DNA of 64,000 bases from Escherichia coli (GCF_009931435.1 NZ_CP043414.1); one strand, 5' to 3'; counted from the first letter of the stretch, positions 6,151-55,040 are shown. The notes: generated from the letters alone by a model not told the origin. Made by a program: numbers and translations.

Positions 6151-6279
6151 CTCTGTGCCAGTAATCTGAAACTCCCACGTTGTTCGGGAGTTTTTTATCC
6201 GCTTCTGGACATTTTCTCCACAGAACAATCGTTAGCCCTGAAGGTCGAATCTGTGAATATTTTTTCACGGACGAAACAG

Positions 6280-6897
6280 ATGAAAGCTTCACTGGCGTTG
6301 TTCAGTCTTCTGACGGTATTTACCAGTTACTCCTTAAAATCTCCCGCTGTTCCACCAACCGTGGTACAAATCCAGGCCAACACCAATCTTGCCATCGCAG
6401 ACGGTGCCAGACAGCAAATTGGCAGCACGCTATTTTACGATCCGGCGTATGTGCAGCTTACTTATCCTGGCGGTGATGTCCCACAAGAACGCGGTGTATG
6501 TTCCGATGTGGTGATCCGTGCTCTGCGCAGCCAGAAGGTCGATTTGCAGAAACTGGTTCACGAAGATATGGCGAAGAATTTTGCCGATTATCCGCAAAAG
6601 TGGCAGTTAAAGCGCCCGGACAGCAACATCGATCACCGTCGGGTGCCTAATCTGGAAACCTGGTTTACCCGCCACGATAAAACGCGCCCCACCAGCAAAA
6701 ACGCCAGTGACTACCAAGCGGGCGATATTGTCTCCTGGCGATTAGATAATGGGCTGGCACATATTGGGGTGGTTTCAGATGGCTTCGCCCGCGACGGTAC
6801 GCCGCTGGTGATACATAACATTGGCGCAGGCGCGCAGGAAGAAGACGTGCTGTTTAGTTGGCAGATGGTGGGGCACTATCGGTATTTTGCTAAATGA
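6280..6897 (+). CDS. yijF: DUF1287-family secreted protein
   Basis: ORF-track 214 aa; start placed at internal MKASLALFSLL signal peptide, giving K-12 length 205 aa. Confidence 0.8.
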   Translation: MKASLALFSLLTVFTSYSLKSPAVPPTVVQIQANTNLAIADGARQQIGSTLFYDPAYVQLTYPGGDVPQERGVCSDVVIRALRSQKVDLQKLVHEDMAKNFADYPQKWQLKRPDSNIDHRRVPNLETWFTRHDKTRPTSKNASDYQAGDIVSWRLDNGLAHIGVVSDGFARDGTPLVIHNIGAGAQEEDVLFSWQMVGHYRYFAK

Positions 6898-13387: not shown

Positions 13388-14515
13388 ATGTCAAATCTGT
13401 TTGCGATTAATGTCTGTAAAACGTTCGGTTGTCGAAATTTGGGATTGGCCTCATCGGAAGATTACAGTTGGCCAGACTATAAACTGGGTTTTCCGGCACT
13501 GCACTGCCAGGCATGCGGAAGTTACCCCCCTTTGTTTGATGAACAACAATTTCGTGACTGGTTGTCAGTTCACATGACTGCGTGTGCCATAGAAACAGGG
13601 CATTTTTGTCCATCATGCTATTGTAAAGAAAAGATTTTTTATGGCCACAACCCGCAGGGAACACAACGCGTTCAATGCCGTTCATGCAAAAAAGTCTGGA
13701 CTCCGAAACAGCAGCCAGCAAGAGAAATTACGTATCCCCAGTCCATTGAAACCGTTCAACTGTTCATGCCCTTTCAAGGAGCCAGCGCAGTACAAAAGCT
13801 CTATGTTTTAGTCAGTCTTGACGCCACTCGTGGCAACATCCTTCATCTCTCCACGAATTATACGCAACATCAGACAGGAGACAGTCTGCGGTACAGTTAC
13901 AGAGGCAATACAGAACCAACTGAGCACCATAGCGATATTGTGCAGAGGGTAGATATGCGTGAAGCGCAATTCTTGCGCCGGAGCCAGTTCGATGAAATTC
14001 AGTATGGCAGTGCTGTGCTCAAGCGCAACGGCAAGGGAGCCATACTACGCCCGGTTATCACGGCACACGGGCATTTCAGAATACTGAAAATCCGCTTTCC
14101 ACATGTCAAAACGCATATCATTTCACACGAATGTTTTCTGAGAGGCGCAATTATTACAGCCTGGGCAGATCAGTTCCGCCAACAACAAGGCGAACTTTGG
14201 TTCGTAGAAGAAGAAATCAGCGACCGTAACGCTGATATTCCCTGGCATTTTCAGGGAACGACATACCATGGTTGGTGGCAAAATCAGTGGCAACGCTGGG
14301 GGCAGGGGAATAACAGCAAGATGGTCTGCCTGCTCACAGGAGTCTCCTTAGAAAGGGGCGCAAATGTTTCTCTGGCAACCAGTCGTTGCTTTATCACATG
14401 GCTGACAGACCAACACGACTTTACCCAAAGCGCGTTATTATCCGCAGGTCGCGTAACGAAAATGCTGACCTCACTGGCGTTAAAATACAATGAATCGCTC
14501 ACTCCATCTTGTTAG
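13388..14515 (+). CDS. Cys-rich (putative zinc-ribbon) protein of unknown function
   Basis: 375-aa ORF; N-terminal clusters C-x2-C...C-x2-C (CQACGS, CPSCYC, CRSCKK) resembling zinc-ribbon modules; no confident family assignment. Confidence 0.55.
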   Translation: MSNLFAINVCKTFGCRNLGLASSEDYSWPDYKLGFPALHCQACGSYPPLFDEQQFRDWLSVHMTACAIETGHFCPSCYCKEKIFYGHNPQGTQRVQCRSCKKVWTPKQQPAREITYPQSIETVQLFMPFQGASAVQKLYVLVSLDATRGNILHLSTNYTQHQTGDSLRYSYRGNTEPTEHHSDIVQRVDMREAQFLRRSQFDEIQYGSAVLKRNGKGAILRPVITAHGHFRILKIRFPHVKTHIISHECFLRGAIITAWADQFRQQQGELWFVEEEISDRNADIPWHFQGTTYHGWWQNQWQRWGQGNNSKMVCLLTGVSLERGANVSLATSRCFITWLTDQHDFTQSALLSAGRVTKMLTSLALKYNESLTPSC

Positions 14516-14744
14516 TCAATACACTCGACAAACGACCATAAATTAATGGGATCACTATTTCTCATTTAATTAAATATATGAATGTATGACTGAAAAATAT
14601 AATCACAGTCAATGTTTAATTAATAACATTATTTGTTACTAAGATCACATAATACTTTCCTGACCTATGCTCTTATAAAAATAAGACACGGTGTTCCTTT
14701 TATTTAAATAATTCAACCAATGTAACAACCCCTATCAAGGAGGG

Positions 14745-16298
14745 ATGATGAGAACTGTATTTACGACTTTATCAGTCATATTCAGCGTGATGTTTTCTCA
14801 CAGTATACTAGCTCAGGACGTTACTATTTATTATACGAATGATATTCACGCACATGTCAATCCGGCAAAAATTCCCGCTGTTGATAAGAACAGACTTGTA
14901 GGTGGTATGGCTAATATTGCAGGCATCGTTAATGAAGCGAAGAAAAAAAACAAAGATGTCTTTTTCTTTGATGCAGGCGACTATTTTACCGGTCCGTATA
15001 TCAGTACCCTGACCAAAGGTGAAGCTATTATTGATATCATGAACACCATGCCCTTTGATGCGGTGTCCGTTGGTAATCACGAGTTCGATCACGGCGTGCC
15101 CAATATGGTATCTCAGTTATCAAAAGCAAAATTCCCCATTCTGCTGGGAAATATTTACTACACCGATACAAATAGACCAGTTTGGGATCATCCGTGGACC
15201 ATTATCGAAAAAGATGGTTTAAAGATTGGTGTGATTGGATTGCATGGTGCATTCGCTTTCTATGATACAGTCGCGGCAAAAGCACGTGAAGGCGTAGAAG
15301 CCAGAGACGAAATTAAATATTTAAATAAAGCACTTGCAGAATTAAAAGGTAAAGTCGACATTACCGTTTTGCTAATTCACGAAGGTGTTCCGGCGCGTCA
15401 ATCAAGCTTTGGTAGTAAAGATGTGGAGCGGCTACTACAGGCAGATATTGAGACAGCTAAAAAAGTGAATGGTGTTGATGTCTTAATTACCGGTCACGCA
15501 CATGTCGGAACACCGCAACCAATAAAAGTTAATAACACATTAATTGTATCTACCGATGCATACGGCACCGACATCGGAAAACTTGTGCTTGATTACAATC
15601 CGAAAACAAAGAAAATTGATAGTTATAATGGTGAGTTAATCACCATCTTTGCAGATCAATTTAAACCTGACACCATCGTTCAAAATACTATCGATAAATG
15701 GAGCGTAAAGCTTAACAAAATCACACAGGAAGTTGTCGGCCATTCTCCCGTAGTTTTAACACGTGAGTATGGCAGTTCTTCTTCTACCGGTAACCTTATT
15801 CTGGATGCAATGATGGAAAAAGCACCTGATGCCATTGCCGGATTTCAAAATAGCGGTGGGATGCGAGCTGATTTTCCTAAAGGTGATATCACACTGGGAG
15901 ATGTTATTAGCACATTCCCCTTTAATAATGACCTCATCGAGATGGATTTGACGGGCCGCGATCTCAAATCATTGATGACGCATGCAACCAATCTAACTAA
16001 CGGTGTGTTACAGGTTTCAAAAAGCGTTGCGGTTGTCTATGACAGCAAAAAACCACTCAACCAGCGGTTAATCTCTTTCACCATTAACGGCAAACCCGTG
16101 GAAGATAATCAAACATATCGTATTGCCACGCACTCCTTTTGTGCCAGTGGTGGTGACGGTTTTGAAGCATTTTTGAATGGAAAAAATGTGAAGACGATAC
16201 CGGGAACAACCTCGGCGGAATCTATCATCGATTATTTCAAAAATCATAAACCTGTCACCCCAGACTTAACTAAACGAGTCATGGACGTCGCCAAATAA
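14745..16298 (+). CDS. Secreted metallophosphatase/5'-nucleotidase family protein (paralog B)
   Basis: 517 aa; signal peptide; same metallophosphatase motif set as paralog A but most divergent of the three. Confidence 0.8.
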   Translation: MMRTVFTTLSVIFSVMFSHSILAQDVTIYYTNDIHAHVNPAKIPAVDKNRLVGGMANIAGIVNEAKKKNKDVFFFDAGDYFTGPYISTLTKGEAIIDIMNTMPFDAVSVGNHEFDHGVPNMVSQLSKAKFPILLGNIYYTDTNRPVWDHPWTIIEKDGLKIGVIGLHGAFAFYDTVAAKAREGVEARDEIKYLNKALAELKGKVDITVLLIHEGVPARQSSFGSKDVERLLQADIETAKKVNGVDVLITGHAHVGTPQPIKVNNTLIVSTDAYGTDIGKLVLDYNPKTKKIDSYNGELITIFADQFKPDTIVQNTIDKWSVKLNKITQEVVGHSPVVLTREYGSSSSTGNLILDAMMEKAPDAIAGFQNSGGMRADFPKGDITLGDVISTFPFNNDLIEMDLTGRDLKSLMTHATNLTNGVLQVSKSVAVVYDSKKPLNQRLISFTINGKPVEDNQTYRIATHSFCASGGDGFEAFLNGKNVKTIPGTTSAESIIDYFKNHKPVTPDLTKRVMDVAK

Positions 16299-16332
16299 AA
16301 TATCATTTATCAGTCTATTTATTTAACAAGGA

Positions 16333-17958
16333 ATGCGAATGAAAACAGTGCAGCGTACTTTACTTGCCGCAACATTGCTGACTATTTTTTCGGTTTCAGT
16401 CATGGCGCAGGATGTCACGATTATTTATACAAATGATCTTCACGCTCATGTGGATTCTTATAAAGTGCCGTATATCGCAGACGGAAAACGCGACATTGGC
16501 GGCTTTGCCAATATATCTACTTTAGTAAAACAAGAGAAAGCGAAAAATAAAGCCACCTTTTATTTTGATGCTGGAGACTATTTCACCGGCCCTTATATCA
16601 GCAGTCTGACAAAGGGCGAAGCAATAATTGACATTATGAATACCATGCCTTTTGACGCAGTATCAATCGGTAATCATGAGTTTGACCATGGCTGGGATAA
16701 TGCCCTGCGACAATTAAGCAAAGCGAATTTTCCTGTTTTATTGGGCAATGTTTATCATAAAGAGAGTGAGAAACCCTTCTGGAACAAGCCCTACACCATC
16801 CTGGAAAAAGATGGCATCAAGATTGGTATTATTGGGCTACACGGCGTATTTGCATTTAATGATACGGTCTCGGAGCTCTCTCTCCAGGGACTCGATAATG
16901 ACAATAATAACCGCTTTGATAAATCTTCCGAGACCCTTAAGAATCAGGGGATTGAAGCACGTGATGAAGTGAAGTATTTGCAACATTATATCGACGAGTT
17001 ACGTGATAAGGTTGACCTCACTGTGGCGCTGGTTCATGAAGGCGTTCCGGCGCGTCAGTCCAGCATTGGCAATACAGATGTTAGACGCGCTCTTGATAAA
17101 GATATTCAAACCGCTAGCAAGGTGAAAGGATTGGATATTCTGATTACCGGGCATGCCCACGTCGGAACGCCAGAACCAATCAAAGTCGGCAACACCTTAA
17201 TCCTTTCAACTGATAGTGGCGGTATCGATATTGGTAAATTAGTCCTTGATGTCAACCCTACAGCTCGTACCCATAAAATGAAGAGCTTTGAGCTGAAAAC
17301 AGTTTATGCCGATGAATGGATACCCGATCCAACGACACAAAAAGTTATCAATGGCTGGAATAAAAAACTGGCGGATATTGTACGCCAACCAGTGGGTGAA
17401 TCATCGATTGCATTAACTCGCGCCTATGGTGAGTCATCGCAACTAGGCAACCTGTTTACCGATGCAATGCTTGTCGCTGCTCCGACTGCACAGATTGCAT
17501 TGATAAACTCCGGCAGCTTACGTGCGGATATAAATGCAGGCACGATTACCTTTGGCGACATTACCAGTACATTCCCCTTCAAGAATGAACTTACTGAAAT
17601 GGATCTCAGCGGTAAGGATCTGCGTAACCTACTGGAACACGGGGCATCGCTTACCAATGGCATCCTGCAAATGTCAAAAGGCGCAGAAATGCGCTATACC
17701 CCGCAGAAACCAGTAGGTCAGCGCATAGTATCTTTTAAAATTAATAGTGAAGAGATCGTTGATACGAATATTTACCATGTTGCAACAACGACTTTCCTTG
17801 CACTGGGGGGCGATGGTTTTCTGGCATTCAAAGAAGGGAAAAATGTTCAGGTCCGCGCCGGAAATAACATGTCCGATGTCGTGATCGATTATTTGAAGAA
17901 AGGCCACAAGATTACGCCTGCACAGGTAAATGAAATGCGGGTGGACGTTAGCAAATAA
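16333..17958 (+). CDS. Secreted metallophosphatase/5'-nucleotidase family protein (paralog C)
   Basis: 541 aa; closely related to paralog A over most of its length, with a 20-aa insertion (ELSLQGLDNDNNNRFDKSSE...). Confidence 0.8.
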   Translation: MRMKTVQRTLLAATLLTIFSVSVMAQDVTIIYTNDLHAHVDSYKVPYIADGKRDIGGFANISTLVKQEKAKNKATFYFDAGDYFTGPYISSLTKGEAIIDIMNTMPFDAVSIGNHEFDHGWDNALRQLSKANFPVLLGNVYHKESEKPFWNKPYTILEKDGIKIGIIGLHGVFAFNDTVSELSLQGLDNDNNNRFDKSSETLKNQGIEARDEVKYLQHYIDELRDKVDLTVALVHEGVPARQSSIGNTDVRRALDKDIQTASKVKGLDILITGHAHVGTPEPIKVGNTLILSTDSGGIDIGKLVLDVNPTARTHKMKSFELKTVYADEWIPDPTTQKVINGWNKKLADIVRQPVGESSIALTRAYGESSQLGNLFTDAMLVAAPTAQIALINSGSLRADINAGTITFGDITSTFPFKNELTEMDLSGKDLRNLLEHGASLTNGILQMSKGAEMRYTPQKPVGQRIVSFKINSEEIVDTNIYHVATTTFLALGGDGFLAFKEGKNVQVRAGNNMSDVVIDYLKKGHKITPAQVNEMRVDVSK

Positions 17959-17970
17959 TAAAAAAATTAT

Positions 17971-18007
17971 AATGCCATTCATTCACTGAATGGCATTATT
18001 TTTCTCT
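17971..18007 (+). terminator. Hairpin plus T-run between nucleotidase C and the tsx-like gene
   Basis: AATGCCATTCA-TTCAC-TGAATGGCATT followed by ATTTTTCTC. Confidence 0.45.
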
Positions 18008-18036
18008 AAATCAACAATAGATAATGAGATATATTT

Positions 18037-18897
18037 ATGTGTATAAAAAAGCACGGGATAGCTTTATCGATTCTATTAATACCTTGCATTGGAAACGCTC
18101 AGGAAATTAAAAGTGAGGAAGGCTGGTTACATCAAAGCTTGAATGTCATTGGTCGCACAGACTCTCGCTTTGGCCCAAGGCTGACTAACGACCTCTACCC
18201 TGAATATACTGTAGCAGGAAGAAAAGACTGGTTTGATTTTTATGGTTATGTTGATCTACCAAAATTCTTTGGCGTCGGCAGTCACTATGATGTTGGGATC
18301 TGGGATGAGGGCTCACCACTATTTACGGAAATAGAACCTCGGTTTTCCATTGACAAATTGACCGGATTAAATCTTGCGTTCGGCCCTTTTAAAGAATGGT
18401 TCATTGCAAACAACTATGTCTATGATATGGGTGACAACCAGTCATCCCGGCAAAGTACATGGTATATGGGGCTTGGTACAGATATCGACACGGGTCTACC
18501 AATTAAGCTTTCTGCCAATATATACGCCAAGTATCAGTGGCAAAACTATGGTGCCGCTAATGAAAATGAATGGGACGGATATCGATTCAAAATAAAATAT
18601 AGCATTCCTCTTACCCATTTATTCGGAGGGCGATTGGTATACAATAGTTTTACTAACTTTGATTTTGGCTCCGATCTTGCGGACAAATCACACAATAATA
18701 AACGAACCAGTAATGCTATTGCTTCAAGCCATATCCTTTCCCTGCTATATGAACACTGGAAATTTGCATTTACACTACGTTATTTTCACAACGGTGGACA
18801 ATGGAATGCTGGGGAGAAAGTTAACTTCGGAGATGGTCCATTTGAATTAAAAAACACAGGATGGGGAACCTATACTACTATTGGTTATCAATTTTAA
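18037..18897 (+). CDS. Tsx-family nucleoside-specific outer-membrane channel paralog
   Basis: 286 aa; signal peptide; long collinear similarity to E. coli Tsx ([72 protein letters not shown]-terminal GY-F). Confidence 0.85.
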
Positions 18898-23362: not shown

Positions 23363-23971
23363 ATGAAATACAGGCTACTGATCCTCAGCCTGCTGGTTTC
23401 TGTGCCTGCCCTTGCCTGGCAGCCGGAAACTGGCGACATCATCTTTCAGATCTCTCGCTCATCGCAAAGTAAAGCAATCCAACTGGCGACCCATTCCGAT
23501 TACAGCCACACCGGTATGCTGGTGATGCGTAACAAAAAGCCCTACGTTTTTGAAGCGGTCGGCCCGGTGAAATACACCCCGCTCAAGCAGTGGATCGCCC
23601 ATGGTGAAAAGGGCAAATACGTTGTTCGCCGCGTTGAAGGCGGACTGAGTGTTGAACAACAGCAAAAACTGGCGCAAACGGCAAAACGTTATCTCGGAAA
23701 ACCGTACGATTTCAGCTTCTCATGGAGCGACGATCGCCAGTACTGTTCGGAAGTGGTGTGGAAGGTTTACCAGAATGCGCTGGGGATGCGCGTGGGTGAA
23801 CAGCAAAAACTGAAAGAGTTCGATCTCAGCAACCCGCTGGTTCAGGCGAAGCTCAAAGAACGTTACGGGAAAAATATTCCGCTTGAGGAAACGGTGGTCT
23901 CGCCACAAGCCGTTTTCGATGCGCCACAACTCACCACAGTCGCCAAAGAATGGCCGCTGTTTTCGTGGTAA
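23363..23971 (+). CDS. yiiX: Putative lipid-binding hydrolase (permuted papain-like family)
   Basis: 202-aa ORF with signal peptide; synteny next to metJ. Confidence 0.88.
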   Translation: MKYRLLILSLLVSVPALAWQPETGDIIFQISRSSQSKAIQLATHSDYSHTGMLVMRNKKPYVFEAVGPVKYTPLKQWIAHGEKGKYVVRRVEGGLSVEQQQKLAQTAKRYLGKPYDFSFSWSDDRQYCSEVVWKVYQNALGMRVGEQQKLKEFDLSNPLVQAKLKERYGKNIPLEETVVSPQAVFDAPQLTTVAKEWPLFSW

Positions 23972-23974
23972 TGG

Positions 23975-24298
23975 ATGATGAAAAAAATAATTCCCGCCGT
24001 AGTCTGTTTGTTGCTTTGTAGTTGCACGACCTTTCCGCAAGCTGTCGCTCCGGCAGGGAAAGATTACGAAAGCCCGCTCCCCGCAAGGACTGACGCCAGA
24101 TACTTTCTGTCCATGGCTGCTTTTCGCATCTTACGTCTTAACCCTGCCTTGAATACCTTATCATTCGTTAAAATATTAATAGCGATGTGCCGTATCCCTG
24201 AAAATAATTCTGCGGCGTTTCCTCTTCGTATTTTGCAGTCGTCTTCATTCATTACCACGTCCAGACGCCAGTGCAGCTTATTCTCCACGTGCCAGTGA
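23975..24298 (+). other. ORF with lipoprotein-like N-terminus running into the antisense strand of the H-repeat element; probably a truncated or chimeric gene
   Basis: MMKKIIPAVVCLLLCSCTTF lipobox-like start 3 nt after yiiX stop; downstream part is antisense to the transposase pseudogene. Confidence 0.25.
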
Positions 24299-25199
24299 TT
24301 TCGGATCGCTGTGGCGAACTTTTCTGCGGTTAAATCAGCAGAACTGATATAATATCTGACCGTCATTTCTGGCTCTTTCTTTTGTTCTGCTATTATTGAC
24401 CGAAAGGAGAATGCCACGCATAATTTCTTCAGTCCTTTCCATTCAAACGTGAAATCAATAAGTTCATCACGGACATCGCAAACAATATGAAGACGGATTT
24501 CTTCTCTGCCGTGACTCTTTTCACTCATTGCGTAACTGTCATGCTCTGGATTATTTAATTCTTTCAGCGGAAATTTTTCCTCGAAGGCTTTATTTAGCCG
24601 CCCCTGATTTCCTTTTACAGAGAATAAATAATCACCTCCCTGTTTTTGTATCTTCTCTGCAATATCTTTCTGGCAACCCATCGCATCAGTTGTGATAATT
24701 TTTCCTTTATATCCAGCATGTTAAGAAGTTCAGGGATAGCAGTAATCTCATTGGATTTCTCATCCGTCTTGATCTGTCCGATGACCAGACTGTGCATTGT
24801 TGAGAACGCACTAATGACATGAATCGCTCCCCTGCGGCGACTCTTGTCATAAGAATGCCGGAGTGTTTTTCCATCAATTGCGATGACGTCTTTATCATCT
24901 GAAGTATGGCAATCTCGCATCCAGTTAATAAAGCACTCGTGAAATTTTGAAGGACTGATACAGGATACAACTCTGGCGATGGTATCGTGAACAGGAATAC
25001 CATTTTCAAAATCACCATATTGTTTTAAAAAATCGCGATGTGCTTCCCCAAAATCCTCTATATGTTCCCAGCCTTCTGCACCAGAAATAACGGCACAAAT
25101 AGTCAACAGTAGAATATCCGACAATTTATGTTTCACTTTTGCAGGATTGTCTGCAATCGGGAATAACAGAAATATGTTCCATCAATTTTTTAAGTTCCA
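24064..25199 (-). pseudogene. ISAs1-family (H-repeat-associated) transposase, disrupted by frameshifts
   Basis: Three pieces ([11 protein letters not shown]... from 25199; 173-aa ORF 24615-25136; 205-aa ORF 24064-24681) are jointly collinear with the ~378-aa E. coli H-rpt protein (YhhI-like) as recalled. Confidence 0.8.
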
Positions 25200-25350
25200 T
25201 TCTTTTCTCCTTAATTATGTAAGGAGTATTTGATCATGTATAAGCAATAAAAAAACAGCTTCAGGCAATGAGGAATATCTCAATTTTTAAACATAAAATG
25301 CGAATTGTTTAGTACAAAAAAGCAGCGTTAAGTGATCTTTCCCTGTCGGC

Positions 25351-25665
25351 ATGTTGACCACTGACGAATGGGGTAGTTACGCTAGAGAGTTACCAAAGGA
25401 GAAGCATCTGACTGGTAAGATTTTTACTCAGCATATTGAGCGTAACAATCTGACCCTGAGAACCCGAATCAAACGTCTGGCCCGCAGAACCATCTGTTTC
25501 TCGCGTTCTGTAGAACTTCATGAAAAAGTCATCGGTGCTTTTATCGAAAATATATGTTCTACTAATTGGAGTCATCACCCTTCTGATGAGCTTTCCTTGG
25601 ATGATTACCAGACTGAATACATAGCCAAAGATTTTTACCTCATTCTGCTTTTTTTTCTCAAATGA
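25351..25665 (+). pseudogene. IS1-family InsB-like transposase C-terminal fragment
   Basis: TDEWGSY...FTQHIERNNLTLRTRIKRLARRTICFSRSVELHEKVIG parallels the IS1 InsB C-terminus (TDGWPLY...[38 protein letters not shown]); the N-terminal catalytic part is missing. Confidence 0.6.
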
Positions 25666-25958
25666 CATATATTATATTTTATATCATATTCATAGGCATA
25701 TGACATTCCCCCGCCCCCCATTATGTCATTGTGGGTTGATGTTGGGCTTTCATAAAAAAATACATCTTTTTTTGAACTAGCATTAATTATATTTACTTTA
25801 TATATTAAAATATTTTCTCCATCTGGAAATATTTTAGCCACACAATATAAAGCAGCTAAATCCGAATTACTTAAAAATATATTGTCATCACTCATAACTC
25901 CAGCCATTAAATGACTGGAGACTAAAGCAAGGAAATAACAACATTGTATTACCTTCAT
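25635..25958 (-). CDS. Candidate Rhs immunity protein
   Basis: ATG 2 nt after the rhs stop (TAA-a-ATG coupling); 107 aa from MKVIQCCYFLALVSSHLMAG (hydrophobic, signal-like N-terminus); strongly AT-rich. Confidence 0.5.
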   Translation of the reverse strand: MKVIQCCYFLALVSSHLMAGVMSDDNIFLSNSDLAALYCVAKIFPDGENILIYKVNIINASSKKDVFFYESPTSTHNDIMGGGGMSYAYEYDIKYNICHLRKKSRMR

Positions 25959-25959
25959 T

Positions 25960-28900
25960 TTAATTACTCCCTTGCCTGATAATTGTAACTCCATTCCCTT
26001 TAGCTTTGGGATTATATTTTAGATAGGTGTTATTTGGTGTTCCCAAGTAACTACTGTATTCTTTTTTTCCCATTCCATTCATATAAGAATTCGTTAAATC
26101 TTTGCTTGAAAAATTTAGACTATCATAAACATCATTTTCTTTTGTTACTTTATTTCCTTTATCGTCAGAGTAAAAACCGTGAGTGTGATAATCGCCTACT
26201 CTCTCTGAACCTTCAGGGCATTTTATATTTCGCAAGTCTACACTATCATTATCATTTGAACTTATCGGATTCATGGGGAAATATTCACCTTGCTTCTTAC
26301 ATATTAGTCCACCATATTCTTTATTCTCGTTAATTGATTCTCCATTACACATTGCCAATGCAAATATTCCAATATCATCTATATTTTTTGATTTAAATTC
26401 ATATAATCCTAATGGATCCATGCCATTCACCGGGCTCAGCGGATATGTATACAGGTTCCATCCCCCCTTCAGCCCAATCGGATCCTGAGTGATATACCGC
26501 CCCTGCAGCGGGTCATAATAGCGGTGGCGGTTGTAATACAGGCCGGACTCCTCATCATACTGCTGACCCGGCAGGCGGATGAGCTGCTGCAGCTGGTGCG
26601 GGTTCTCTTCATTCAGCAGGTTGCCCCATTCATCGTATTCTGCGCACCATTCTGTTGCCCCTTCCGTGCTGATAAGCACCAGCGGCAGGCCGCGATGGTC
26701 GCAGTGGTACAGGTGGATTTTTCGCGCCGGCGTGTACACCGGTTCCATCTGGTTTTGCATCTGCGCCACCGTCAGGCCGCACGATGCCAGCCAGCGGCGG
26801 CTTTCCTCACTCACCCGGTCAGCCAGGATTTCACTTTCCAGCCGGTCGAGCATCTGCACCAGCACCGGCGGGAACACCACACTGCCACCGTCTTCGCCGC
26901 CGGACTGCTGAAGCGCATCCGCCAGGCTGCGGCGCTGCGTTTTCGCCAGCTCACCGGTGGCGGTTTCGACCCTGATGAGTGGCGTGAAGCTCCCCGGCTG
27001 ATAAACCGTCTGGATGCGGGTTCTGTCGTTCTGTATCGTGGTCAGCCGGTCGCCGTCCCAGCCGTACCAGGTCACTTCCGGTTTCCGTGACAGCGACATC
27101 CAGCCCGTCAGGTCCCGTTCACGCCGCCACACCCGTTTTGCCACCCTGCGGCCCAGCGGGTCGTAAAGATAGCGACTTTCGACCAGCGGCTCTGCATATT
27201 GTGTCCGCGTGTAGTGCACCAGCCGGTGCCGGCTGTCGTAATGGTACCGGTGAGTCCGCTCATCATCCGTGCGGATAACCCCTTCCGGGATGAGGTCGGT
27301 TTTCTCTGTCAGCCTGCCGTGACGGTCATACCGGTAAAGATAGTGCGCGTCACGGGCGATACGGTTATCCGGCCACATGCTGAGGGTGCTGTCCGGGTGC
27401 AGCTCCGGGTCGGGCAGGCGGTTACCTGCCGGGTCCGTGGCATACGGGATGCGGATATCCAGATTCGCTGCGGTGGTGTGAACGCCGGTCAGCCTGCCGG
27501 TGGTGCTGTAGCTGTAACTCCGGGTCTGGCGCGGGCTGCTGATGCGAATGAGTTCGCCGTTGTCGTTCCAGGTGTAATCGCGGTCATACTGCAGGCTGTT
27601 CAGGTGCTGGCTCTGTAACTGCCCGGCAGGGGTGTAAGCGGTGGTGAGTTCATAACGGCCGAAGCTGCGCAGCGTTTCCCGGTGCAGGCGGTCGCGGGTG
27701 AAATCCACCAGCGGTGTGTCGCCGAGTTTCATCCCTGCCAGGTAACCACTGCCATAAGTCAGCCATTCCACGGCGGGCAGGCTGTCCGGTATACAGCGGT
27801 TCGCCAGCCCCTGCGCGTTGTACGCATGTCTGGTTTCATGCTGCCAGAGCAGTGCTTCCGTCTGCGGGTGATGCACCGTCTGGCGCTCACCGGTCAGGCG
27901 GCCTTTCTCATCATACCCGTAATGCACCGTCACCCGGTGCCCTTCGCTGAGATGGCTGATGCCTGTCAGCCAGCCGCGTTCGTCGTACCGCCACTGTTCT
28001 GCGGTTTCACCATTCACCGTTCGCTGCGTGATGCGGTCTGCTTCGTCATAGTGCCAGTGGGTGACCAGTCCCTCATCCTCGCTGCGGATAAGTTTGCCGG
28101 TCAGGTCGTGGTGATAACGCTGTGTGCGGCCGTCAAAGCCGGTTTCCTGTATCAGCCGGTCGAGTACATCGTAACGGAAGGTGGTGTGGCTGCCGTTTTC
28201 GTTTGTCAGGCGGATGACCCGTCCTGCAGCATCGTATTCCATACTGCGGGTCAGCCCGCCCTGCGTGGTACGGACGGCCTTTCCCCACGCATCGTACTGT
28301 GCCCCGTATCTGCTGCCGTCCGGGGCAATGACGGTGGTCAGGTCACCGGCGGCGTTGTATTCATACCGCGTTTCATGGCCCTGCGTGTCTTTCACCGCAA
28401 TTAACTGTCCATGGCTGTCGTATGCGCGGCACTGGCTCAGGCCTTCCTCGCGGTGCACCGCCGTCATCTGCCCGAAGCGGTCATGGTCATAACGGGTCTG
28501 GTAGCCGGAACAGTCGGTGAAGGTCAGCAACTGACCGTAACGGCTCCACGTCATGGTTTTCCGGCTGCCGGTGGCATCTTCCGTTGCGCAGGGGAAGTCA
28601 CTGTGTGGATTATCATAACGGTAGCGGATGATATCGCCGTCAGGGGCAGTTTCCTGAATCAGACGGCCGGATTCATCATATTCCCGGCGTATTTCCAGCC
28701 CGTCAGGCCCGGTGGCTGACGTTAACTGGTTGTGGTGGTTATAGTAAAACGCCGATGCCCTGCCATCCGGCGTGGTGATGCGCGTGATGAGTCCCGTCAC
28801 CACATCCGGGCTGTATTCTGTTGTCCGGCCTGCGGCATCCGTCTGTGTCCTGAGCCTGCCCACCGCGTCAAACTGACTCTGCGTGACGCTGCCGTCCGCG

Positions 28901-30144
28901 TGTTCCTTTTTCACCACCCGCTTCAGCCCGCCTTCGCCTGCGGTATGCAGGACTTCATGGCGGTCCAGGCTGTCGGTGATGGTGATGCGGTCTTTCTCAT
29001 ACTGATACGTGTAGCTTAAGCCTGCCGGGTTTAGCTGTTCTGTCACCCGCCCGTCGCTGTCGTAACGGTAACGGATTTCCGGCCGGCCCGTGTGACGGTG
29101 CGCCACCATCCGGCCCCGGTATTTATCATCGTAAGTAAAGCTGCGCACCTGTGTATTGCTGCGGTCATACACCGCCGCCAGTTCGCCGCGCGGCGTCCAG
29201 CCATAGCGCACCAGCGGCGTGGCTGGCAGGTTGTCCGGGTATTCCGGGTCGTGCGTCAGCCACACGGCAGACAGACGGATACCGTTGTCCCGGCCATATT
29301 CCGTGTAGTCCGGCAGGGTATCAGGAAAAGCGGACTGTTCCGCCCCGCCGGAAGAGGCCTGCTGCCGGGCCTCTTCTGCCCGCTGCGCCTGCGTGGTCAG
29401 TGCCAGCCGGAAGTGACGCCCGGCACCATCCGTCACGCCGGTGATTTCGCCGCTGAATTCACCGGCGGCTTCGCGGTGAAACGTCTGTGTGCGCCCGAAG
29501 CGGTCCACCAGCCCGGTCAGTACCCGGTACGGCGGCAGCGGCGCGGGCAGCACCTCATCCGCCTCCGGCACCCGCTCACACCAGCCGAGTACCCACCACG
29601 GCCCCTGCGGACTGTTCGTCGCCAGATAACGATGCGGACTCAGGCGAAGCTCTTCCGGCAGCGCCTGCCAGAGTGCGGCCAGCCGGTGACCTTCATCCAG
29701 TCTCAGGACGCCGCCGCGCACCAGCCAGAGTGACTCGCTGCGGCTGTAACCGTCCTCACCGGGAAACAGGTGCTCAAAATACAGGCTTCTGCCGCCGTTA
29801 TCACTGAGTATCAGTGTGTTATCGCGCAGCTGTAAGCGGATATCCGCAGGCATTTTCCAGCCGGGGCCGAGAATACCCACCGGCGCGGGCGTTTTTGTCC
29901 GGTAACTGCTGTACGTGCGGGAGAGGATGAACGGCAGCGGTCCGGGCAGGGCAATGTCTGTCTCGCCGGGAAGGACCTTTGCACCGAGCAGGGGATTGAC
30001 CGGATGGCCGGACGTCACCCCGCCGGGGCACACCGAACAGGCCACGCCGGTGGGGGCACCAATACGTACCCCGGCTGAACCCTGAACAATGCTACCGCCA
30101 TACTGCGTCATGTCGCCCTGACGCGCCGCCGGTTTTCCGCTCAT
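25960..30144 (-). CDS. Rhs-family protein with variable C-terminal toxin domain
   Basis: 1394 aa; N-terminus [23 protein letters not shown] typical of E. coli RhsA/B/C-class; YD repeats; DPLGL boundary motif then a 147-aa AT-rich C-terminal tip. Confidence 0.9.
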
Positions 30145-30303: not shown

Positions 30304-30555
<252 letters not shown>

Positions 30556-30559
30556 CTAA

Positions 30560-32917
<2,358 letters not shown>

Positions 32918-35163: not shown

Positions 35164-35229
35164 ATTGCATTATGCCCCGTACTTTTGTACGGGGTTTGTA
35201 CTCTGTATTCGTAACCAAGGGGTCAGCTC

Positions 35230-35760
35230 GTGACAACTATAGTAAGCGTACGCCGTAACGGCCATGTGGTCATCGCTGGTGATGGTCAGGCCACGTTGGG
35301 CAATACCGTAATGAAAGGTAACGTGAAAAAGGTCCGCCGTCTGTACAACGACAAAGTCATCGCGGGCTTTGCGGGCGGTACTGCGGATGCTTTTACGCTG
35401 TTCGAACTGTTTGAACGTAAACTGGAAATGCATCAGGGCCATCTGGTCAAAGCCGCCGTTGAGCTGGCAAAAGACTGGCGTACCGATCGCATGTTACGCA
35501 AACTTGAAGCACTGCTGGCAGTCGCGGATGAAACCGCTTCACTGATCATCACCGGTAACGGTGACGTGGTGCAGCCAGAAAACGATCTTATTGCTATCGG
35601 CTCCGGCGGCCCTTACGCCCAGGCTGCGGCGCGCGCGCTGTTAGAAAACACTGAACTAAGCGCCCGTGAAATTGCTGAAAAGGCGTTGGATATTGCAGGC
35701 GACATTTGCATCTATACCAACCATTTCCACACCATCGAAGAATTAAGCTACAAAGCGTAA
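35230..35760 (+). CDS. hslV: ATP-dependent protease subunit HslV
   Basis: 176 aa, N-terminal Thr ([11 protein letters not shown]). Confidence 0.95.
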
Positions 35761-49874: not shown

Positions 49875-49972
49875 GCCATATGCGGCGCGAACGCCTTATA
49901 CGGCCTACAAAAGTTTGCAAATTCAATAAATTGCAGAATTCATGTAGGCCTGATAAGCGAAGCGCATCAGGC
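49875..49972. repeat. REP/BIME palindromic units
   Basis: GCCATATGCGGCGCGAACGCCTTATACGGCCTAC and GTAGGCCTGATAAGCGAAGCGCATCAGGC. Confidence 0.75.
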
Positions 49973-54950: not shown

Positions 54951-55040
54951 TTGTAGGCCAGATAAGGCGTTACGCCGCATCCGGCGTTTGAGCAGAATGC
55001 CTGATGCGACGCTGATAGCGTCTTATCAGGCCTACTCTCC
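54951..55040. repeat. REP/BIME palindromic units
   Basis: GTAGGCCAGATAAGGCGTTACGCCGCATCCGGCG and GCCTGATGCGACGCTGATAGCGTCTTATCAGGCCTAC. Confidence 0.75.

Follow-up and report, generated by a model that had tools for sequence, protein, structure and literature searches.

The Rhs island that this Escherichia coli chromosome carries between yiiX and rpmE has, at its distal end, a full-length H-rpt element with a frameshifted transposase gene, flush against the 3' end of an IS1H-type IS1. We attribute this arrangement, with a probability of about 85%, to nested insertion of IS elements, an adjacent deletion, and gene conversion between H-rpt paralogues. Direct observations cover the anatomy, both indels, the junctions and how these are distributed among genomes, and the sharing of alleles between paralogues; from these we infer the order of events, the adjacent-deletion mechanism, and the gene conversion. 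The feature as such is ordinary, already-known mobile-DNA debris, all parts of which are annotated by PGAP in related genomes; reports of H-rpt elements and IS1 fragments at Rhs termini go back to the 1990s. The value of the analysis lies in a corrected annotation, i.e., the ends of the elements, the positions of the frameshifts, the identity of the truncated flanking gene, and the order of events. Throughout, the window denotes the whole stretch of 64,000 nucleotides that was analyzed (GCF_009931435.1, NZ_CP043414.1), and positions are counted from its first letter.

Composition of the distal end of the Rhs island

The host chromosome belongs to a minor E. coli lineage, its core genes being ~99.0% identical to those of strains 2017-02-2CC, N96, 2013C-4282, WL297, and 2020CK-00188; identity of the window core genes to nearly all other E. 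coli genomes is 95-99%. The island occupies the yiiX-rpmE interval in the order yiiX, a 5' stub of a TIGR02117-family gene, H-rpt, the IS1H 3' piece, dsORF-f3, rhs, and rpmE, H-rpt and the IS1H piece forming its distal end. Downstream of yiiX (23363-23971, plus strand), a TIGR02117-family lipoprotein gene survives as its first 79 nt (23975-24053, plus strand), which encode the signal peptide MMKKIIPAVVCLLLCSC... and are cut by H-rpt, the break being placed at ...GCTCCGG by alignment of E. coli HS, O157, and the window. The 107-codon ORF at 23975-24298 is a read-through chimera running from the TIGR02117 start into the antisense of H-rpt. E. coli HS holds the whole 624-nt TIGR02117 gene between yiiX and rpmE (NCBIfam TIGR02117, E 6.5e-67) and no Rhs, and K-12 has a mere 60-bp spacer at this site and no TIGR02117 gene; in the window, the island stands in place of the TIGR02117 gene. 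On the minus strand follow the Rhs immunity-type gene dsORF-f3 (25635-25958), designated by the PGAP name of the colinear gene in WL297 (L001), in Res13-Sevr-PER07-33 (L002), and at locus L010, and a full-length rhs of 1394 aa (25960-30144). We take the locus to be the RhsF element of Hill and co-workers, which would be the source of the PGAP name dsORF-f3.

At the same locus of 2020CK-00188 (L003, 9906-15957), the f3 tip and dsORF-f3 form an orphan pair that lies behind ybfB and a full rhs whose own tip is of the rhsC type, whereas in the window the main rhs has the f3 tip fused to it. Displacement or loss of tips of this kind, via core recombination, is usual. Elsewhere in the window, a block adjoining metL (13388-18897) encodes two 5'-nucleotidase/metallophosphatase proteins and a Tsx-like channel; it is common to WL297 and 2020CK-00188, Res13-Sevr-PER07-33 and O157 having metF instead, and serves as a lineage marker. 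Four Rfam matches at gathering score, namely the L31 ribosomal-protein leader 5' of rpmE (30523-30575), the ClpQY (hslVU) promoter element (35175-35232), the ES036 sRNA (49910-49951), and naRNA4 (54956-55032), are all expected core-genome features.

The H-rpt (ISEc1-like, ISAs1 family) spans 24054-25345 on the minus strand and, with 1292 bp, is colinear end to end with the 1291-bp copies at nine other loci (93-99% identity). Of the 5426 E. coli genomes, 5342 contain elements of this type, the median number of places per genome being 5. A repeat search and alignment to other copies located the terminal inverted repeats at 24054-24064 (transposase 3' end, CAGGGAAAGAT) and at 25335-25345 (transposase 5' end, ATCTTTCCCTG on the plus strand). 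As is expected of an ISAs1 element, these repeats are intact, with 11 of 11 positions perfect and an extended version of 29 nt at 76% (arms 24050-24078 and 25321-25349), and their positions coincide with the start and end of homology to the nine other copies. The H-rpt ORFs match the ISAs1 transposase domains in Pfam, DDE_Tnp_1_assoc and DDE_Tnp_1 (PF13808, E 3.8e-28; PF01609, E 5e-15 and 5e-8), and score 195 and 188 bits with NCBIfam NF033564 (cutoff of 70 bits), the two pieces spanning positions 1-140 and 146-314 of the 314 of this profile. Given both inverted repeats and the full 1292 bp, the H-rpt is thus a complete element and not a remnant. An earlier note, made from the sequence alone, had described it as decayed, which does not agree with its full length, its two inverted repeats, the 7-aa difference from the intact protein, and the intact orthologue present at the same site in three strains. 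The same note had correctly recognized the two features, which chance by no means explains, but bounded them at 24064-25665, which are ends of ORFs, the elements themselves lying at 24054-25345 and 25346-25579; likewise, the inverted repeats that it expected near 24040 and 25290 do exist, at the sites given above.

The target-site duplication that would mark an ISAs1 insertion was not found at the window H-rpt, whose flanks read ...GTCGCTCCGG and TCGGCATGTT..., nor was it seen at the other H-rpt copies inspected. For the window copy, this fits an adjacent deletion or a rearrangement. No more H-rpt, IS1H, IS1A, or group II intron sequence was found elsewhere within the window.

Directly abutting the H-rpt, 234 bp of the 3' end of an IS1H-type IS1 (positions 531-764 of 764) occupy 25346-25579 on the plus strand, as delimited by alignment to complete copies, with the right inverted repeat at ~25557-25579. 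This piece is 99.6% identical to the complete 764-bp copy of Res13-Sevr-PER07-33 (L002, 6110-6873) and 99.1% identical to that of O157:H7 (L009, 5100-5863), both at the same locus. The corresponding plus-strand ORF (25351-25665) matches PF03400 with E 6.7e-32 over profile positions 61-127 of 131, as befits an InsB-type DDE transposase, which bears out the C-terminal InsB-like remnant on the opposite strand that had been noted previously. Its match to NF033558 reaches 59 bits, under the 100-bit cutoff, because only profile positions 154-199 of 199 remain. The piece codes for just the last ~76 residues of InsB, and the last 28 codons of the ORF, up to 25665, are non-IS1, extending beyond the right inverted repeat into the spacer and then antisense to dsORF-f3. 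Positions 1-530, comprising the left inverted repeat, insA, the A6C site, and most of insB, are missing from what would be a complete IS1. As the earlier note had remarked, the piece is divergent from canonical IS1, essentially without blastn similarity to K-12 IS1A. It was also right that both elements are inactive, since neither can encode a transposase in the window copy.

Frameshifts in the H-rpt transposase gene

The intact orthologue of the H-rpt transposase gene (ORF-H) encodes a 378-aa protein (WP_106907682.1) at the same site in WL297 and 2013C-4282, and the gene is intact too in 2020CK-00188. Alignment to this orthologue revealed exactly two indels in the window copy, where at least two frameshifts had been suspected. 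The first is a +1 at codon 20 (Trp20, TGG to TGCA, extra C at 25141) that leaves a 24-residue reading followed by a stop, precisely as the earlier note had described for the N terminus, and the second, placed by that note around residue ~170, is a -1 at codon 164, where one T of GATATTAAA is missing at 24709/24710. As the two indels cancel, the first and last pieces share a frame, the middle 142 codons being in another. All three pieces are on the minus strand: an N-terminal one of 24 codons and a TAA (25126-25200), defined by alignment to the orthologue; a middle one that holds intact codons 22-164 in the shifted frame and ends shortly past the -1 deletion (24615-25136; PF13808 and the N-terminal part of PF01609, NF033564 1-140); and a C-terminal one of 205 codons in the frame of the start codon (24064-24681; PF01609 87-200, NF033564 146-314). 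The single uninterrupted ORF of ~378 aa of an ISAs1 element is thereby lost, and the window copy is a pseudogene of a family member. Once repaired, its translation differs from the intact protein by 7 residues outside codon 20. At the nucleotide level, the window H-rpt and the orthologous copies at this site share 98.3% identity, a divergence close to that of the core genome (~99.0% identity), so that the lesions postdate the split of the strains.

The +1 is linked to 7 substitutions in a patch of 8 differences (25167-25095). This patch is also present in the yafV-locus copies of 2013C-4282 and WL297 and in the ydcC-locus copy of N96, all of which are annotated as frameshifted, and is missing from the orthologous H-rpt copies at the yiiX locus. 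Of the informative sites, 13 are shared between the window and the yafV paralogue, as against 6 shared with the yiiX orthologue, the 6 including the three terminal sites. Such a mosaic pattern of agreement, together with the shared allele, argues for gene conversion between H-rpt paralogues, by which the window H-rpt may have been silenced from a frameshifted paralogue while sister strains retain intact ORFs. The conversion could also have run in the reverse direction, the copies of the sister strains having instead been repaired by an intact paralogue. The -1 deletion is absent from ~24,000 H-rpt places in 5274 genomes and reflects a mutation private to this copy or else an error of assembly.

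It is unlikely that either frameshift, or both, arose artificially during sequencing or assembly, with the true copy being intact or carrying a single lesion. The private status of the -1 speaks for such an error, but this deletion lies in a TT dinucleotide and not in a long homopolymer, and the gene would still be frameshifted without it. The +1, for its part, travels with its 7 linked substitutions and occurs, at other loci, in three independent complete assemblies, which makes it a real allele and not a sequencing error. We give next to no credence to programmed recoding at codons 20 (+1) and 164 (-1) that would restore a functional transposase, as in IS1 or IS3. The two shifts do cancel and place the first and last pieces in a common frame, and the first site holds a short AAAA run, the second A-AAG; however, two independent low-efficiency events would both be required, the near-identical orthologues and most H-rpt copies have one uninterrupted 378-aa ORF, and no other H-rpt copy has the -1. 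Moreover, inspection of the sequence at both sites found no canonical slippery heptamer, stimulatory Shine-Dalgarno sequence, or stop-codon context, and the A6C frameshift site of IS1 (~6420 in the copy of Res13-Sevr-PER07-33) falls within the deleted part of IS1H. Programmed frameshifting was rejected after inspection of both indel sites and comparison with the intact orthologues, as no conserved slippery site emerged; a recoding signal, which the earlier note had considered as a way back to a functional transposase, was found to rescue neither element.

Trp20 of ORF-H (25141-25143 in the window) has been hit twice independently, by a TAG annotated as an internal stop in the ISEc1 copy of Res13-Sevr-PER07-33 and by the +1 of the allele shared by the window, the yafV copies, and N96; this double damage may be a coincidence or reflect a hotspot. 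Upstream of the gene, a promoter-like site (TATACA-17-CATAAT, 25242-25214, minus strand) and a strong AAGGAG ribosome-binding site 5' of the ATG at 25200, both within 25207-25242, prove nothing in themselves, and a scan for promoters and terminators over 23900-26000 gave no more sites than shuffled sequence. Judging from these motifs, the 24-codon N-terminal ORF could still be expressed. In the allele with the +1 only, a GTG at 25136 overlaps the stop, and reinitiation might in theory yield a protein without residues 1-21, which is speculation.

Junctions among genomes and assembly of the island edge

In O157:H7 and Res13-Sevr-PER07-33, the TIGR02117 stub is followed by TAAAC, a complete IS1H, and dsORF-f3, TAAAC being native TIGR02117 sequence, as seen in the HS genome. 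Relative to the O157 state, the window has H-rpt in place of exactly TAAAC and IS1H positions 1-530, and both junctions are flush with the inverted repeats. The junction between the right end of IS1H and dsORF-f3 is identical in 2163 of the 5426 complete E. coli genomes, IS1H being complete in the carriers examined (O157:H7 and Res13-Sevr-PER07-33); IS1H is therefore an old, fixed island edge. By contrast with this old edge, H-rpt at this spot of the yiiX site, or the H-rpt-IS1 junction, occurs in only three of these genomes (WL297, 2013C-4282, and 2020CK-00188), all among the closest relatives of the window. WL297 and 2013C-4282 have the same two H-rpt junctions as the window, with the ORF intact. 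The H-rpt/IS1 junction is kept in 2020CK-00188 as well, where the other H-rpt end abuts yiiX codon 34 after a further 589-bp deletion, again precise at the H-rpt end. In 24 other genomes, a different H-rpt copy is found inside the rhs gene, with a complete IS1H, and is an independent arrival.

We propose that an island with rhs, dsORF-f3, and a complete IS1H would first have replaced most of the TIGR02117 gene, a state that persists in O157:H7 and many E. coli. In one minor E. coli lineage, H-rpt would then have landed beside or inside IS1H, and a transposase-type adjacent deletion, precise at the H-rpt end, would have removed TAAAC and IS1H 1-530. This would leave H-rpt flush with both the TIGR02117 stub and IS1H position 531, with no target-site duplication. 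In the window strain, the transposase gene would subsequently have been inactivated, the +1 allele and its linked patch probably arriving by gene conversion from a frameshifted paralogous H-rpt, and the private -1 deletion would have been added later. Neither H-rpt nor the IS1H piece is functional here; their sole roles are those of passive repeats and of an island boundary. As no intermediate was found, i.e., H-rpt with a target duplication beside a complete IS1H or H-rpt inside IS1H, the order of insertion then adjacent deletion is one that we infer. No target-site duplication was found around the complete IS1H of Res13-Sevr-PER07-33. The lack of target duplications at complete IS1H, together with the loss of most of the TIGR02117 gene, makes it plausible that an IS1-associated deletion had struck the island edge earlier, before the island spread.

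The earlier note had suggested that both IS elements are ancient decayed relics, the IS1 piece marking a lost orphan-tip region of an old and immobile Rhs element, a scenario that we consider very unlikely. The IS1H/dsORF-f3 junction is indeed old and widespread, the missing target duplications even of complete IS1H make an earlier IS1-associated edge deletion likely, and in 2020CK-00188 the f3 tip is itself orphaned behind an rhsC-type main gene. However, H-rpt is young and nearly intact, a lineage-restricted part found in 3 of 5426 genomes, and nothing supports a dependence of Rhs mobility on these IS copies. Immobility and old age do not follow from the lesions, since the youngest component is precisely the broken H-rpt, whereas the old one, IS1H, is complete in O157:H7 and Res13-Sevr-PER07-33. 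The sequence lost on IS1H truncation is known to the base (IS1H 1-530 plus the 5 bp TAAAC), and orphan-tip sequence between dsORF-f3 and IS1H was present in none of the loci examined, which leaves the idea of a deleted orphan-tip region without support. It is highly improbable that H-rpt and the IS1 stub came ready-made by recombination with another Rhs locus instead of by local transposition. The same order and orientation of immunity gene, IS1 3' stub, and H-rpt does recur at O157 pptA/RhsE and at SCU-301 yafV, and the whole unit is common to the pptA and yafV loci, with homology stopping at the outer end of H-rpt. Nevertheless, the stub at these loci is 131 bp with another truncation point and 93.9% identity, whereas that of the window matches, at 99.1-99.6% identity, the complete IS1H that other strains have at yiiX-rpmE itself, and the TIGR02117/H-rpt junction offers no homology for recombination. 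The H-rpt/IS1 junction of the RhsE and yafV loci was accordingly rejected as the source of the window junction, the stubs measuring 131 versus 234 bp and the breakpoints being different. Local nested insertion with adjacent deletion remains our preferred reading.

The closest relatives carry a group II intron (ltrA; Rfam RF00029 and RF01999) in the region of the H-rpt 5' inverted repeat at three different Rhs loci (L010, 3070-4957; L012, 8282-10165; and L013), the equivalent site in the window being ~25331-25335. WL297 retains just 595 bp of a group II intron (L001, 7387-7981), and the intron is absent from the window and from 2020CK-00188. The window junction GATCAC/TTAACG may never have been invaded, or may result from a deletion at a 4-bp TCAC microhomology. 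At O157 RhsE/pptA (L006, ~6195-6420), a fragment of ~200 bp from the 5' part of this intron lies between tandem H-rpt ends, the end GATGATCTTTCCCT being present three times; the fragment directly precedes a 131-bp IS1 stub.

Significance and comparison with known elements

The broken transposase gene is a recent lesion in a young insertion and not the sign of an ancient immobile island. The series from HS to O157:H7, to 2013C-4282 and the window, and to 2020CK-00188 provides a natural case of nested insertion, adjacent deletion, and gene conversion between paralogues. Among strains that are ~1% diverged, one locus displays three precise H-rpt junctions, with the TIGR02117 stub, yiiX codon 34, and IS1H position 531. 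Taken together with the recurrent layout at other loci, the sequences leave room for the doubtful but possible idea that H-rpt may be naturally active in this lineage and that the cap formed by the IS1 stub and H-rpt could aid the transfer of rhs. If true, this recurring cap would act as a distal homology arm that moves rhs tip/immunity units between Rhs loci.

The H-rpt corresponds to the classical 'H-repeat' of Rhs elements, which the Hill laboratory reportedly described. The window copy resembles the H-rpt/ISEc1 elements of K-12 (ydcC and yhhI) in length (1292 versus 1291 bp), in the repeats CAGGGAAAGAT, in the organization as a single 378-codon ORF, and in its place at the distal edge of an Rhs element, with 94.7% nucleotide identity to the ydcC copy. 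It differs from ISEc1 by its two frameshifts and by a lineage-specific subterminal CACTTAACGCTGC instead of CATCAGAAGTACAC, and its closest relatives are labeled by PGAP as ISAs1 family and not as ISEc1. Regions bearing H-rpt are listed in ISfinder though transposition has been unobserved (PMC3032704), and H-repeat remnants have been implicated in recombination at Salmonella O-antigen clusters (PMC3715488).

The IS1H of O157:H7 and the window piece are 99.1-99.6% identical over positions 531-764 and have an identical right-end junction with the dsORF-f3 spacer, the window lacking positions 1-530. The RhsE-type module of O157 pptA and SCU-301 yafV, whose common unit runs from vgrG to H-rpt, shares with the window the succession of immunity gene, IS1 3' stub, H-rpt, and chromosomal flank; it differs by its 131-bp stub (234 bp in the window), by its immunity gene dsORF-e4, and, in O157, by an intron remnant and duplicated H-rpt ends. 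Jackson et al. 2009 (PMC2935791) list the yiiX-priA site as their Rhs locus 11, which has the same position and the same rhs/dsORF-f3/IS layout as the window. The combination of a full-length rhs with an H-rpt-truncated IS1H was found in one complete genome only, that of 2013C-4282, which adds the group II intron.
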